From a virus (lineage: Duplodnaviria > Heunggongvirae > Uroviricota > Caudoviricetes): DNA of 64,000 bases. Positions within the stretch are counted from its first letter, which is position 1, and every line of letters begins with the position of its first letter. This document shows positions 29,201 through 55,510 of this stretch, in pieces. Location: IMG/VR virus record IMGVR_UViG_646311924_000007, positions 32,001 to 96,000 of that record; one strand, written 5' to 3'. Under the pieces are notes generated by a model, which did no database searches, was not told the origin of the DNA, and worked only from the letters and a program-made list of their open reading frames with translations. The position numbers and the translations under genes are program-made.

Positions 29201-29319
29201 TCAGAGAGCTTTATCATGACAGTGGCTTCAGAGTGGAACCTCTTTTTGCCAGACGTTCTGTGTCTTGTAAGGGGGACACTCGAGGTGTAGCTCATGACGT
29301 TTTGGGTATATTGCTCTAA
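26278..29319 (+). CDS. dmt: bifunctional DNA methyltransferase Dmt (C5-cytosine MTase plus Dam-like N6-adenine MTase) carrying an intein
   Basis: GTG start overlapping hrdC stop; C5 motifs IV ([12 protein letters not shown], split), VI (ENV), IX ([16 protein letters not shown]), X (GNSMAIPV); Dam-like FKWAGGK and DPPY in C-terminal half. Confidence 0.85.
26509..27531 (+). mobile_element. intein with LAGLIDADG homing-endonuclease domain (341 aa) inside dmt
   Basis: Starts Cys (CFTAGHMVL), block B TTNDHPF, two LAGLIDADG motifs ([22 protein letters not shown]), ends [16 protein letters not shown] then +1 Cys; removal rejoins GGTP and CQAFSIAG. Confidence 0.8.
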
Positions 29320-29326
29320 TAAATTT
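29310..29326 (+). promoter_or_regulatory. C1 operator, perfect consensus ATTGCTCTAATAAATTT
   Basis: 17/17 match; overlaps last codons and TAA stop of dmt, upstream of tRNA/plp/ban region. Confidence 0.7.
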
Positions 29327-29500
29327 ATTAGTGTAATATCACCTCAATGAATCGTGATTTATAGAGCGATTTAGCTGTTAGCCGCGACAGGCGCGGCGGT
29401 AAGCATGGCTGGGCCTAGTCCTCCCAGACAAACCACCGAGTTGCCAGGTTGACCATGCGCCTAAGTGGCAACGCCGAAGTGCGTTACGAGCGTCCAGTTT

Positions 29501-29991: not shown

Positions 29992-30066
29992 GATGGTGTA
30001 GCTCAGCGGTAGAGCAGTTGGCTGTTAACCAACTGGTCGGTAGTTCGAATCCACCCACCATCGCCA
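29992..30066 (+). tRNA. tRNA-Asn (anticodon GUU)
   Basis: Hand-folded cloverleaf: acceptor GATGGTG/CACCATC, anticodon loop CTGTTAA, T-loop TTCGAAT, discriminator G, encoded CCA. Confidence 0.75.
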
Positions 30067-30071
30067 CTTTA

Positions 30072-30158
30072 GGGGAGTTAGTCCGTAGGGGTAGCGGGGT
30101 AGACTGTAAATCTACTGTCATTGCGACTCGGGTGGTTCGACTCCATCACTCCCCACCA
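30072..30158 (+). tRNA. class-II tRNA-like gene, anticodon GUA (Tyr-like)
   Basis: Acceptor GGGGAGT/ACTCCCC, anticodon arm GTAGA-CTGTAAA-TCTAC identical in loop to E. coli tRNA-Tyr as recalled, long variable arm, encoded CCA; D-arm region slightly irregular. Confidence 0.55.
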
Positions 30159-30162
30159 CATT

Positions 30163-30238
30163 GCCGATTTAGCTCAGTTGGTAGAGCAGTCGCTTTGTAA
30201 GCGAATGGTCAGCGGTTCGATCCCGTTAATCGGCACCA
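30163..30238 (+). tRNA. tRNA-Thr (anticodon UGU)
   Basis: Acceptor GCCGATT/AATCGGC, D-arm TAGCTCAGTTGGTAGAGC, anticodon loop TTTGTAA, T-loop TTCGATC, encoded CCA. Confidence 0.7.
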
Positions 30239-30240
30239 AC

Positions 30241-46345: not shown

Positions 46346-46852
46346 TTGAGTATTTTCAATAAACACGCACACCAGGAACGTCCGTATATCGTCATAGTCG
46401 ATATTGATGGGACGATATCAGAGGCAACGGAAGACAGGCTGCATTTGCTTCCACCACCTGGCAAAGGTGCATTAACAGAGCACTGGAACGAGTTTAACCT
46501 TGCCTGTGACACTGATGCTCCCATCACTCCAGTTATTGATATGGTGCGCCAGTTATTTAACGTTTACACGGTCTGGTTTGTAACCGGGCGCTGTGAGATA
46601 GCCAGGGATAAAACACGAGCCTGGTTGCGTAAGCACGTAACAAACGGGGCTGAGCCTTTGCTATCTATGCGTCCTGCCACCGATGACAGAAATGACGGCC
46701 CAGCAAAGATTGCTCTCCTTAAGAAAATTGGTCTAAGTAAAATCGCGTTCGCGCTGGAAGATAAGATTGAAGTGGCGCGTGTTTTCAGGAGTCACGGCGT
46801 ACTTACGTTAATGGTCAGGGAGTATGAAAACGCGCTTCTCCATCAACAGTAA
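46346..46852 (+). CDS. HAD-superfamily phosphatase-like protein
   Basis: Motif I VIVDIDGTIS near N-terminus; 168 aa. Confidence 0.5.
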   Translation: MSIFNKHAHQERPYIVIVDIDGTISEATEDRLHLLPPPGKGALTEHWNEFNLACDTDAPITPVIDMVRQLFNVYTVWFVTGRCEIARDKTRAWLRKHVTNGAEPLLSMRPATDDRNDGPAKIALLKKIGLSKIAFALEDKIEVARVFRSHGVLTLMVREYENALLHQQ

Positions 46853-46868
46853 TTGCTCTAATAAATCT
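46852..46868 (+). promoter_or_regulatory. C1 operator-like site (ATTGCTCTAATAAATCT)
   Basis: 16/17 to consensus; abuts stop of HAD-like gene, upstream of early-gene block. Confidence 0.6.
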
Positions 46869-53103: not shown

Positions 53104-53774
53104 CTACTCTAACGACAGCATACTTACAGCAATTGGTATTTTTTGCAGGCGAGGCTACTTGTCATCCTGACGCAAACTATTTATTGGAATTTGAGAGGTT
53201 AGCGTCACCCGGTATCGTTCTGGAACTGGCCCAACAGGTGCTGGCCTTGAGACAAAAAGAGCAACATGAAAGTAATACGTGTAGATTGAATTTTGAGCAG
53301 TGGCTGGAACAGCAACGCGGAAAAATCGATGTGGACTGTGGTTGTGTGTCCACTGAAACATTCATGCACTGGCTGCGGGTAGCTTACGAGGCTGGCAACT
53401 ATCCGGATATTCCGGATATTCCGGATAGTTCGGTGCCAGCGCCAGGAAAGGGCGTCACAGGTGAGCGTATCCGCATTAAGCCGCATGTTTATCGCGAACT
53501 GGTTAACCGTCTCCACGATACAGCGATCAAGTGTGCAGGCACCCAGCAATTACGAGAAAGAATTAGCCGTGTTTTGGGCGACGTTATTACGCCAGACCAT
53601 CATAAACAAGCCGAGAAAAGTGACCTGGAAAGGTGTCACCTTGAGGCGGCATTAAACATTAAGCCGGGGCATACGCTTGGCATTATCGATGCTCTGTTGG
53701 TTCATAAGATGGCCAGGGCTTTATTGCCGCTGGTGGCTGAAAAGCATGAGGCGGACCATGCCAACGAAAGCTGA
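53085..53774 (+). CDS. hypothetical early protein
   Basis: 229-aa ORF; contains perfect tandem 9-bp repeat GATATTCCG x2 (53407-53424). Confidence 0.4.
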   Translation: MAQKEMTTLTTAYLQQLVFFAGEATCHPDANYLLEFERLASPGIVLELAQQVLALRQKEQHESNTCRLNFEQWLEQQRGKIDVDCGCVSTETFMHWLRVAYEAGNYPDIPDIPDSSVPAPGKGVTGERIRIKPHVYRELVNRLHDTAIKCAGTQQLRERISRVLGDVITPDHHKQAEKSDLERCHLEAALNIKPGHTLGIIDALLVHKMARALLPLVAEKHEADHANES

Positions 53775-54042
53775 GTTACAGGCGCGCATAGATATTCTTG
53801 AAAAAGAGAATGCGAGTCTAAAAGGAATGCTGGCGCGGGCGGAAAGGGAATTATCAGGCAAATTATTGCCAGAAGAGCTGCCACCAGCAGATATACCTGA
53901 TCGAGTGTCCTGGTGGATGAAGTATTTCCGTGCACCGTGGGAGGCGTTTTGGTGCTACGACCATCGCAGATGGTGTGATGAGCTTGATAGCAGTTTCCCC
54001 TATTTTGCGGAAGGGAACTCTTGCCCTGAATGTAGGAGTTAA
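53758..54042 (+). CDS. Cys-rich small protein, tandem paralog 1
   Basis: Start taken at ATG 53758 (MPTKAEL); C-terminal PWEAFWCYDHRRWCDELDSSFPYFAEGNSCPECR. Confidence 0.45.
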   Translation: MPTKAELQARIDILEKENASLKGMLARAERELSGKLLPEELPPADIPDRVSWWMKYFRAPWEAFWCYDHRRWCDELDSSFPYFAEGNSCPECRS

Positions 54043-54347
54043 TGATGACCGGCGAGCTTTATTTTAAAATGGCACGGGAGCGGCGTGTGCATCTGGATCG
54101 GATATTTCATCTCCAGAAGAGAGTAGAAGAACTGGAACGTCGTCTGAACTGTTATCCTGTTGATATGGTGTCTGCAATACCGCCGATTCCAATAGAAATG
54201 CAGATCCGCCTATGGATGGAAGAATATGGAATGCCGTGGGAGATATTTTTCTGCTTCGACCATAAACAGTGGGTAGATGAGCTGGATAATAGTTTCCCAT
54301 ATTTCACAGAGAACACATGCCCAGTATGCAGGAAGAACGGAATATGA
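54042..54347 (+). CDS. Cys-rich small protein, tandem paralog 2
   Basis: C-terminal PWEIFFCFDHKQWVDELDNSFPYFTENTCPVCR parallels paralog 1. Confidence 0.45.
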   Translation: MMTGELYFKMARERRVHLDRIFHLQKRVEELERRLNCYPVDMVSAIPPIPIEMQIRLWMEEYGMPWEIFFCFDHKQWVDELDNSFPYFTENTCPVCRKNGI

Positions 54348-54868
54348 CAAAATTTGGAAAGCTGGAAGCTCATTTGCTAACTCGTAACTACCGCCATGAT
54401 ATACACCCATATAGACAGTGGATCGATGAAAGTGAAGGAGTAGTTACATTCCCTCTATACAGGTTTGATGGGATGTTGGCTGGGTATCAGACATATAGAC
54501 CAGGTGCTCCTAAGCAGCATAGCAATCCGAAGATGGCCCGGTATTTCACGCGATCACATGGCAGACAGTTACTTTGGGGAACCTATCTTCCTTTAAAAGA
54601 TGGCCCAATATGGATAACTGAGTCTATTTTTAAGAGCGCAGCTGTACACAACGCGGGCGGCAATTCGTGGGCGCTGTTAGGTTCGACTTTCTCCGCAGGA
54701 TTACGCCGTCAACTTGCGATGCTGCCGTATGACTTTCGTGTAATAGGTGACAATGATGCGGCTGGTGAATTACTTGTGAAGTCTTTCGGAAAAGGTTTTG
54801 TGGCCCCGGATCTTGACGAGCTACAACCACATGAAGTGTCTCATTTGATTTTTAGCCATAGCCAATAA
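54344..54868 (+). CDS. Toprim-like domain protein
   Basis: Start taken at ATG 54344; conserved Glu (ITESIF) and DxD (IGDNDAAG) with Toprim-like spacing. Confidence 0.4.
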   Translation: MTKFGKLEAHLLTRNYRHDIHPYRQWIDESEGVVTFPLYRFDGMLAGYQTYRPGAPKQHSNPKMARYFTRSHGRQLLWGTYLPLKDGPIWITESIFKSAAVHNAGGNSWALLGSTFSAGLRRQLAMLPYDFRVIGDNDAAGELLVKSFGKGFVAPDLDELQPHEVSHLIFSHSQ

Positions 54869-54928
54869 GCATCTCTCCCCTTTGAGGCCACAATTAGTGG
54901 CCTTAAACAATGTGTTTTCTACCTCGAT

Positions 54929-55144
54929 TTAGCCTCTATTATCGTTTTGCATTTCTCTAATCCGGTTCAGAACTACTTCATGCTGGGCTTGGATAGCGGC
55001 TTTTTCGTTTTCAAGTCGGGCAATAGACATCTCTAATTCTTTGCTGTACCAGGCGAGTTGGGCCAGGTTCATCCGGTTGTGGTCGAGAGTTGGAGACACT
55101 TCGACGCGATCCCTTTCTTCCTGCTTTAATGAGAAGAGATTCAT
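54929..55144 (-). CDS. small coiled-coil protein (hypothetical)
   Basis: 71-aa ORF, convergent with early block. Confidence 0.35.
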   Translation of the reverse strand: MNLFSLKQEERDRVEVSPTLDHNRMNLAQLAWYSKELEMSIARLENEKAAIQAQHEVVLNRIREMQNDNRG

Positions 55145-55174: not shown

Positions 55175-55510
55175 TTATTGTTGATGATCCGGTCGCTGCG
55201 GCATCCTCGCCAGTATAAATGGCGGTTCTTTTGAAAACATGAATGTCGGTTCAGACCGTGTTTTTACCCAGCTTGCCTGCTGTCTTTCGGCAAGTTCACA
55301 GGCTTCATCATAGTTATTTGCCAAACCAAGCACGGATGGACGGTCCCACGCGCCACCATTCAGACAATAAACAACAATTTTCCCGTCATGTTCTGTAACC
55401 CCATAGGGATGGTCCCACCAGGCGTCCAGCTGAGCTTTAGAGCGTTTCTCGTTAGGAGTGCAGTCAAAATTTTTGGGCAATACAGGATCGAGAGGAATGC
55501 GATTAGGCAT
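55175..55510 (-). CDS. hypothetical protein
   Basis: 111-aa ORF upstream of the 71-aa gene on minus strand. Confidence 0.4.
   Translation of the reverse strand: MPNRIPLDPVLPKNFDCTPNEKRSKAQLDAWWDHPYGVTEHDGKIVVYCLNGGAWDRPSVLGLANNYDEACELAERQQASWVKTRSEPTFMFSKEPPFILARMPQRPDHQQ

Follow-up and report, generated by a model that had tools for sequence, protein, structure and literature searches.

A probable Rad-family anti-retron gene at the end of the early block of a P1-like phage-plasmid

Introduction

What is the function of a small protein with Toprim motifs that is encoded at the very end of the early gene block of a temperate P1-like phage-plasmid? This question is raised by a gene at positions 54344-54868 of a 64,000-nucleotide stretch of viral DNA (positions 32,001 to 96,000 of the IMG/VR virus record IMGVR_UViG_646311924_000007), which was analysed as a whole and is referred to below as the window. 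An original prediction, made from the sequence alone, had described the gene product as a Toprim-like domain that is too short for a full primase, and had pointed to defence and anti-defence contexts in which such short proteins occur. Here we report that this gene, which we call the rad-like gene, is probably a member of the family of Rad, an anti-retron protein of T5-like phages. Homology and analogy give us fairly good confidence in this family and role, and less in the underlying chemistry.

Results

A predicted primase catalytic domain

The gene and the residues of its product on which the analysis turns are as follows.

54344-54868, plus strand: rad-like gene, 174 amino acids (aa); predicted primase RNA-polymerase domain (N-terminal subdomain plus Toprim) without a zinc-binding domain
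Key residues of the rad-like protein: R14, P37, I91, E93, D136, D138, D156 and E159

The open reading frame (ORF) is intact and runs over 174 codons from the ATG at 54344 to the stop codon at 54866-54868. Two further in-frame ATGs lie 5' of this start (54317 and 54326). The start at 54344, which overlaps the stop codon of the preceding ORF (ATGA, 54344-54347), is also the one assigned by RefSeq to the 100% identical copy on plasmid NZ_CP027590 (WP_000159954.1, 'toprim domain-containing protein'). Within this ORF a Glu in ITESIF (residues 91-96) and a DxD in IGDNDAAG (residues 134-141) had been predicted to stand at Toprim-like spacing, and both were confirmed, as E93 (nucleotides (nt) 54620-54622) and as D136 and D138 (54749-54751 and 54755-54757). 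These three residues are invariant in an alignment of homologues down to 32% identity. The same alignment also shows G43, L45, G47, Q49, Y51, P53, P62, Y67, F68, T69, W78 and G79 to be invariant, and R14, P37, D156 and E159 to be nearly so. Because of this invariance across homologues, the Toprim Glu and DxD motifs are far from chance occurrences.

Profile and structure comparisons both led to primases. PHROG 849 ('DNA primase') matched residues 10-175 with E=1.3e-53 (profile positions 143-333 of 435). When the family profile was compared with all PDB sequences, the only matches at E<=0.02 were RNA-polymerase domains of DnaG primases (4e2k, 1dd9, 1eqn, 3b39, 5vaz and 2au3), with an alignment that spans motif II through the DxD. 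The AlphaFold (AF2) model of the rad-like protein was confident, with a predicted local distance difference test (pLDDT) score of 90.3 and a predicted template modelling (pTM) score of 0.86. Its best 38 Foldseek matches in the PDB were all primase domains of DnaG, T7 gp4 or T4 gp61 (E 1e-5 to ~1e-2; query-normalised template modelling (TM) scores of 0.4-0.68), while the next match was the Toprim domain of RNase M5, with only ~100 residues aligned (E ~1e-2). Since PHROG 849, the PDB profile, the confident model and the Foldseek matches agree, the protein is predicted to be a complete primase RNA-polymerase domain, N-terminal subdomain plus Toprim, which is more than a bare Toprim domain. The Toprim assignment thus holds by fold (DnaG, T7 and T4 primases, then RNase M5), by the PDB profile and by PHROG 849; what needs refining is the view of a short Toprim-like domain, since the whole primase RNA-polymerase domain is present and not a lone Toprim.

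Of the DnaG-type features, the rad-like protein has the RNA-polymerase domain with motifs II-VI and the Toprim fold. A zinc-binding domain (motif I, CHC2/C4) was not found, the protein having zero Cys residues and no zf-CHC2 match, and a helicase-binding or helicase domain is likewise absent, as the chain stops ~15 residues past the last Toprim motif. At the position equivalent to D269 of DnaG the rad-like protein has a Lys (TESIFK), and a more distant branch of the family keeps the Asp (TEGIFD).

Scans of the rad-like protein against Pfam, NCBIfam and PADLOC gave no match even at E<=10, and among the libraries scanned it was visible only to PHROGs and to custom profiles. Relatives within the family do exceed the curated cut-off of Pfam Toprim_2 (22.1 bits), with 31.4 bits for P0053 and 27.5 bits for P0112, and P0010 has a precomputed match to PF13155. 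The Toprim reading had been made to depend on a Toprim profile match and on the predicted fold: a Pfam match to the protein itself is indeed lacking at E<=10, but the fold is that of Toprim and relatives pass Toprim_2.

Relationship to the anti-retron protein Rad

Literature searches on T5p074, on 'primase-like' proteins and on zinc-less Toprim primases returned nothing direct, and the link to a function came via the anti-defence literature. In the T5-like phage SP15, the determinant for retron evasion was mapped to ORF75 in a tRNA-rich 8-kb region and named Rad (Azam et al., bioRxiv 10.1101/2023.03.15.532788). According to this preprint, Rad is a protein of 189 aa 'with primase/helicase and TOPRIM/RNase domain' that neutralises the retrons Ec67, Ec78, Ec83, Ec48 and Se72. 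With Rad, the levels of the retron non-coding RNA (ncRNA, msr-msd) and of the multicopy single-stranded DNA (msDNA) fall, while those of the reverse transcriptase and effector transcripts do not, and Rad is weakened by the substitutions R13E, P33T, I88T, D135H and E156H (10.1101/2023.03.15.532788). Anti-retron activity with loss of ncRNA and msDNA was reported for the SP15 protein and for homologues of Proteus, Shigella and Salmonella phages (10.1101/2023.03.15.532788; PMC11555353), and in the peer-reviewed version it is again ORF75 that determines evasion of retron-Eco2 and retron-Eco7 (PMC11555353).

The T5 protein T5p074, annotated as 'DNA primase-like protein', connects these data to the window. 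Its gene lies 21 nt upstream of tRNA-Ser, within the 8-kb region that is deleted in st0. In its 172-aa annotated form, T5p074 has R, P, I, D and E at positions 13, 33, 88, 135 and 156, which are exactly the mutated residues of Rad, and its longest ORF is 189 aa, the stated length of Rad. On the five residue positions, the 189-aa ORF and the location in a tRNA-rich region we equate T5p074 with Rad, as its predicted orthologue. The rad-like protein is 43% identical to T5p074 over 167 of its 174 residues (E=3e-33) and has the ES[IV]FK signature and the GDND motif in common with it. All five residues tested in Rad are kept, as R14, P37, I91, D138 and E159. Of these, D138 provides the second Asp of the DxD, and E159 belongs to a DLDE motif, the counterpart of DPDE in DnaG. 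Like Rad, it is a small standalone protein (~170-190 aa; here 174 aa) from an accessory region, and its gene is the last of a variable early block. The earlier hint at a defence or anti-defence context is borne out in that the protein is homologous to the anti-retron Rad/ORF75 of T5-like phages. This is not a new kind of system: the family has already been named, and a 2025 preprint has already described Rad (anti-Retron) from two P1/D6 clades of phage-plasmids and from SSU5-supergroup elements of Escherichia and Shigella, 16-22% of which carry it (10.1101/2025.09.12.675607).

Several points weigh against the assignment or against its chemical side. The equation of T5p074 with ORF75 rests on five residue positions, ORF length and genomic location, and not on the SP15 sequence itself. 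The Lys at the position of DnaG D269, which T5p074 shares, means that the metal site is not the canonical one of primases. The whole N-terminal subdomain of primases is kept, which a simple Toprim RNase would not need. Finally, degradation of the ncRNA by Rad is a claim of the preprint, whereas the mechanism is called not yet determined in PMC11555353.

Alternatively, the protein could be the Toprim nuclease effector of a plasmid-borne defence or exclusion system, similar to OLD, Gabija and PARIS or to RNase M5, that would shield the host from other phages. The Toprim Glu and DxD are in keeping with this, P1-like elements do carry defence genes (10.1101/2025.09.12.675607), and the RNase M5 Toprim is among the weaker fold matches (E ~1e-2). 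PADLOC, however, gave no match at E<=10, neither an ABC/AAA ATPase nor another partner gene lies beside rad, and the fold matches cover the primase-specific N-terminal subdomain that Toprim nucleases lack. The family is moreover found overwhelmingly in virulent phages, and the homologue that has been studied counteracts a defence system instead of serving one (10.1101/2023.03.15.532788; PMC11555353). We therefore consider a defence nuclease very improbable, and a Rad-family anti-retron protein the probable identity.

Distribution and decay of the gene

In a search space of 1.84 billion cluster representatives, the family profile retrieved 1638 members with E<=1e-3, of which 180 reach E<=1e-30; standalone proteins of 160-190 aa make up almost the whole set. 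Among GenBank phages the family is present in 490 records, which include T5-like phages, Guernseyvirinae, Erwinia and Serratia jumbo phages, and Proteus, Vibrio, Pseudomonas and Stenotrophomonas phages; its annotation varies between 'DNA primase', 'toprim domain-containing protein' and 'hypothetical'. In the Erwinia and Serratia jumbo phages (H71-H73, H94, H95, H103, H105 and H109) the family match always comes in two pieces. In Deimos-Minion (KU886225.1, 2908-3517) the pieces are two short coding sequences, gp49 and gp50, immediately upstream of the gene for an RtcB-like RNA ligase. A frameshift or a small insertion could explain this split.

At least 80% of the rad-like gene was found in 47 plasmids, which are either P1-like (~92-100 kb) or phage-plasmids like PhiR41_1 (~107-128 kb). 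On the PhiR41_1-type plasmids the gene again closes an Ea22/EaA block, just before humD. These two kinds of carriers agree with the reported occurrence of Rad in P1/D6 and SSU5 elements (10.1101/2025.09.12.675607). Canonical P1 is without the gene, and ~94 further P1-like plasmids hold only an unannotated 3' remnant of rad (nt 313/319-525; e.g. CP042641.1, 35515-35726). The rad-like gene is thus accessory and not core, as follows from its absence from P1 and from the ~94 plasmids with nothing but a remnant. A similar 3' remnant is present in P7 and in SJ46, and in P7 (AF503408.1, 91923-93232) it adjoins an IS903 insertion. The remnants suggest repeated decay of rad at this variable spot.

Genomic setting and the upstream Zn-finger ORFs

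The window belongs to a P1-like phage-plasmid, in which humD, phd, doc, pdcB and lpa follow downstream at 96-97% identity to P1 relatives. The position that is held by pmgV-upfM/N/O-hot in P1 is occupied here by three other genes, namely the Toprim gene and, before it, a pair of small Zn-finger ORFs. The features that surround the rad-like gene are listed below.

46852-46868, plus strand: C1-operator-like site with 1 mismatch (ATTGCTCTAATAAATCT), immediately 3' of the 168-aa ORF 46346-46852 and at the position of P1 OpmgT/Op88
53758-54042, plus strand: Zn-finger ORF of 94 aa, PHROG 3797, paralogous to the next ORF (38% identity) and in tandem with it
54042-54347, plus strand: Zn-finger ORF of 101 aa, PHROG 3797, with a long N-terminal helix and a C-terminal C-x2-H-x18-C-x2-C; a neighbour and at most a possible partner of rad
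54881-54907, plus strand: terminator-like hairpin (core GGCCAC-AATTA-GTGGCC) between rad and the convergent minus-strand ORFs; found by consensus scan only, with a putative function

The rad-like gene ends a long plus-strand run of mostly overlapping ORFs, which includes ead/Ea22-like, DUF551 and ASCH genes. Its placement at the end of the early block was therefore correct: it is the last gene of this run, and it is followed first by the hairpin and then by convergent minus-strand ORFs. The C1-operator-like site at 46852-46868 is likely the control point of the operon that ends with rad, and with the operon-terminal place of the gene and the terminator-like hairpin it makes expression from a C1-repressed early operon likely. 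The 168-aa ORF that precedes the site occupies the position of P1 pap, an equivalence by position only.

With the C1 operator consensus ATTGCTCTAATAAATTT and <=3 mismatches, 12 sites were found in the window between 8393 and 61327, against 0.34 expected. One of these, at 29310-29326, is perfect; it is overlapped by an inverted partner (29321-29337) and lies just upstream of a tRNA cluster. The convergent ORFs beyond the hairpin, 54929-55144 (minus strand, 71 aa) and 55175-55510 (minus strand, 111 aa), are both hypothetical proteins in RefSeq. They correspond to the C-terminal part (123-193) and the N-terminal part (1-111), respectively, of PHROG 6164 (194 positions), and they sit at the position of the LexA-regulated lxr of P1, a single gene of 190 aa. 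By position and by the PHROG 6164 match, they may be the halves of a split lxr, or else the lineage may have two genes in its place.

The long N-terminal helix and the invariant C-x2-H-x18-C-x2-C are common to both Zn-finger ORFs. Stop/start overlaps chain both of them into rad, and C71, H74, C93 and C96 are invariant in the family of the 101-aa ORF. An arrangement of this kind could mean that the 174-aa protein is the catalytic subunit of a split or auxiliary primase, which would be served in trans by the upstream CHCC Zn-finger ORF(s) and would prime phage or plasmid replication. The motifs II-VI and the primase fold are intact, the 101-aa ORF is translationally coupled to rad through the ATGA overlap, and its C-x2-H-x18-C-x2-C resembles the C-x2-H-x17-C-x2-C of the DnaG zinc finger. 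There are also jumbo phages in which standalone primase-type zinc ribbons are encoded beside DnaG-like primases (Iyer et al. 2021, PMC7824862), and a rad homologue follows a gene for an SNF2-like helicase in Kagunavirus and in locus L033.

The Zn-finger ORFs, however, have no sequence similarity to primase zinc domains in Pfam (zf-CHC2) or in the PDB, and a structural model of moderate confidence (pLDDT 75) returned no fold match. Nor are the two kinds of genes regular companions. The Zn-finger family occurs without rad in RCS47, in D6 and in an integrase-proximal prophage region, whereas diverged rad homologues have unrelated upstream genes without a Cys/His motif, and PhiR41_1-type plasmids carry rad DNA of ~94-96% identity with no Zn-finger neighbour. 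On these grounds (Pfam, PHROG, PDB profile, fold and neighbourhoods) we rejected the Zn-finger ORFs as a detached primase zinc domain for the main explanation. A replicative primase role was rejected as well: the T5 copy lies within the deletable region and is thus expendable for the phage, Kagunavirus encodes another helicase-primase, and a helicase, a zf-CHC2 or a DnaB-binding domain was found in none of the 20 longer family members scanned. All in all, a split primase seems quite improbable. A partnership of rad and the Zn-finger proteins that is specific to this lineage may exist nonetheless. Zn-finger proteins of the PHROG 3797 family are also found in early regions of lambdoid-type prophages.

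tRNA and RNA-repair associations of the family

The 20 longer family members, scanned with Pfam, contain as fusion partners PolyA_pol/CCA-adding domains (in both orders), Arr/ART-like, HAD, Mom, NMNAT-like, GNAT and ParB_N domains, and in one case a DUF3268 zinc finger. Such long members, among them the metagenomic P0048, P0121, P0051, P0158, P0070, P0124, P0119, P0146 and P0084, are rare, and where they have a PolyA_pol domain an HD domain may or may not accompany it. They could be polyvalent proteins of phages, or fusions introduced by gene calling. The pattern of fusions and neighbours fits an accessory, nucleic-acid-directed role in phage-host conflict rather than a replicative one, and it could also simply reflect the clustering of counter-defence genes in islands.

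The same pattern bears on another interpretation, in which the family consists of nucleotidyl-transferases or end-processing enzymes that act on damaged RNA or tRNA in response to tRNA-targeting immunity, with anti-retron activity as one facet; this does not exclude the Rad assignment. When loci were clustered at <80% identity, same-strand tRNA genes were present within 3 kb in 5 of the 16 clusters. In three of these (T5-like, L032 and L081) the tRNA gene is only 21-44 nt away, while the distance is 723 nt in L090 and 2.9 kb in L006. A rad homologue adjoins a CCA-adding enzyme in Vibrio phage F89 and precedes RtcB in Erwinia phage Deimos-Minion. P0070 and P0124, which are fused to a CCA-adding enzyme in opposite orders, point in the same direction, as do the fusions with HAD phosphatase, Arr/ART-like, NMNAT-like and GNAT domains and the retention of a full primase polymerase domain.

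On the other hand, T5-like phages have their anti-defence genes in an island that is this very tRNA-rich region, and adjacency may thus reflect co-location of counter-defence genes instead of a shared substrate. Furthermore, the lineages in which tRNA arrays occur may not count as independent cases, and gene calling may have produced some of the metagenomic 'fusions'. In the window itself, the tRNA genes are 22 kb from rad, and RNA-repair genes were not found beside it. An RNA-end enzyme as the main role of this gene hence appears unlikely, and we return to the Rad-family anti-retron gene as the probable reading.

The tRNA cluster of the window (29992-32259) consists of tRNA-Asn, tRNA-Tyr (30072-30158, plus strand), tRNA-Thr and tRNA-Met(CAT). 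Only 4 phage records cover at least 80% of the three-tRNA block that includes tRNA-Tyr, and the records listed do not include P1 or P7. The tRNA-Tyr segment was found in 243 plasmids, a number well above that of the rad carriers. Phage tRNA-Tyr is a published antidote to retron-Eco7 (PtuAB). As phage tRNA-Tyr counters this retron, the element would carry both kinds of anti-retron devices known from T5-like phages. A specific pairing of rad with the tRNAs of the window is not claimed, given that tRNA-Tyr is much commoner than rad and that the tRNAs lie 22 kb off.

Discussion

Our analysis suggests how the rad-like gene might act. On infection by, or induction of, the P1-like element, rad would probably be expressed from the C1-repressed early operon, and its product would neutralise host retron systems as reported for the T5-like homologue. 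In the likeliest mechanism, the primase-derived nucleic-acid groove would bind the ncRNA of the retron or its RNA-DNA hybrid. Cleavage or some other inactivation by the Toprim metal centre (E93, D136, D138 and D156/E159) would follow, and the msDNA-based sensor would then not be assembled. The fold, the homology, the conservation of the tested residues and the genomic position come from the present analysis, whereas the evidence for anti-retron activity, and for the fall in ncRNA and msDNA, comes from the literature on homologues. By analogy, this copy is expected to have the same activity, with a chemistry that presumably depends on the Toprim metal and with the presumed early timing of expression.

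A more far-reaching and rather doubtful proposal concerns the substrate. The priming junction between msr-msd RNA and msDNA is the one feature that is common to all retrons. Rather than a plain RNase, Rad might be a primase-type handler of single-stranded DNA or RNA-DNA hybrids that attacks this junction by Toprim-based nucleotidyl transfer or cleavage, and the wider family might be a general end-acting module in conflicts that involve RNA or tRNA damage. The coupled CHCC Zn-finger proteins would then be possible lineage-specific specificity factors. The idea of an end-acting module derives from family members that are fused to CCA-adding enzymes, in either order, or to ART-like and HAD domains, from the RtcB gene next to one of them, and from the loci that repeatedly lie within tRNA arrays.

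As defences against phages retrons are widespread, and they also serve as tools for genome editing. Rad/ORF75 is the only broad-spectrum protein inhibitor of retrons that has been reported, and the 2024 paper leaves its mechanism open (PMC11555353). By mapping the tested residues of Rad onto the Toprim metal site and the N-terminal subdomain, a concrete and testable mechanistic frame is obtained. In a subset of P1-like and SSU5-like phage-plasmids the rad-like gene is an accessory gene, probably for counter-defence, and it may help such elements, which are often linked to antimicrobial resistance, to establish in retron-bearing Enterobacteriaceae.

The comparison with known systems shows what is shared and what is not. 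With the RNA-polymerase domains of DnaG-type primases (E. coli DnaG 111-433, S. aureus DnaG, T7 gp4 ~71-245 and T4 gp61) the rad-like protein shares the fold, the motifs II-VI, the Glu, the DxD and the DxDE-like acidic motif. In length, too, it comes near the RNA-polymerase domain of the T7 primase. Unlike DnaG-type primases, the protein has neither a zinc-binding nor a helicase or helicase-binding domain and has a Lys for D269; its gene lies outside any replication module here, and the T5 homologue is dispensable. In group 2 jumbo phages, too, a DnaG-type catalytic domain is unfused to its zinc domain and small Zn proteins are encoded nearby (PMC7824862), but the Zn-finger ORFs of the window are dissimilar to the primase zinc ribbons of those phages and do not consistently accompany rad homologues. 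Small Toprim nucleases (RNase M5, and OLD, Gabija GajA, PARIS AriB and the retron-Eco2 effectors) share the Toprim metal-binding core and possibly an RNA target, whereas, unlike the rad-like protein, they are without the N-terminal subdomain of primases and are combined with different partner domains or with ATPases.

In the case of Rad/ORF75 itself (SP15; T5p074), the differences lie in the surroundings of the gene. Rad/ORF75 is encoded by virulent T5-like phages within a tRNA array, while the rad-like gene belongs to a temperate P1-like phage-plasmid, stands outside any such array and, unlike the T5 locus, is preceded by two Zn-finger ORFs. The proteins themselves have the same size and are homologous over their full length, and each is encoded by a standalone gene in an accessory early region of the phage.

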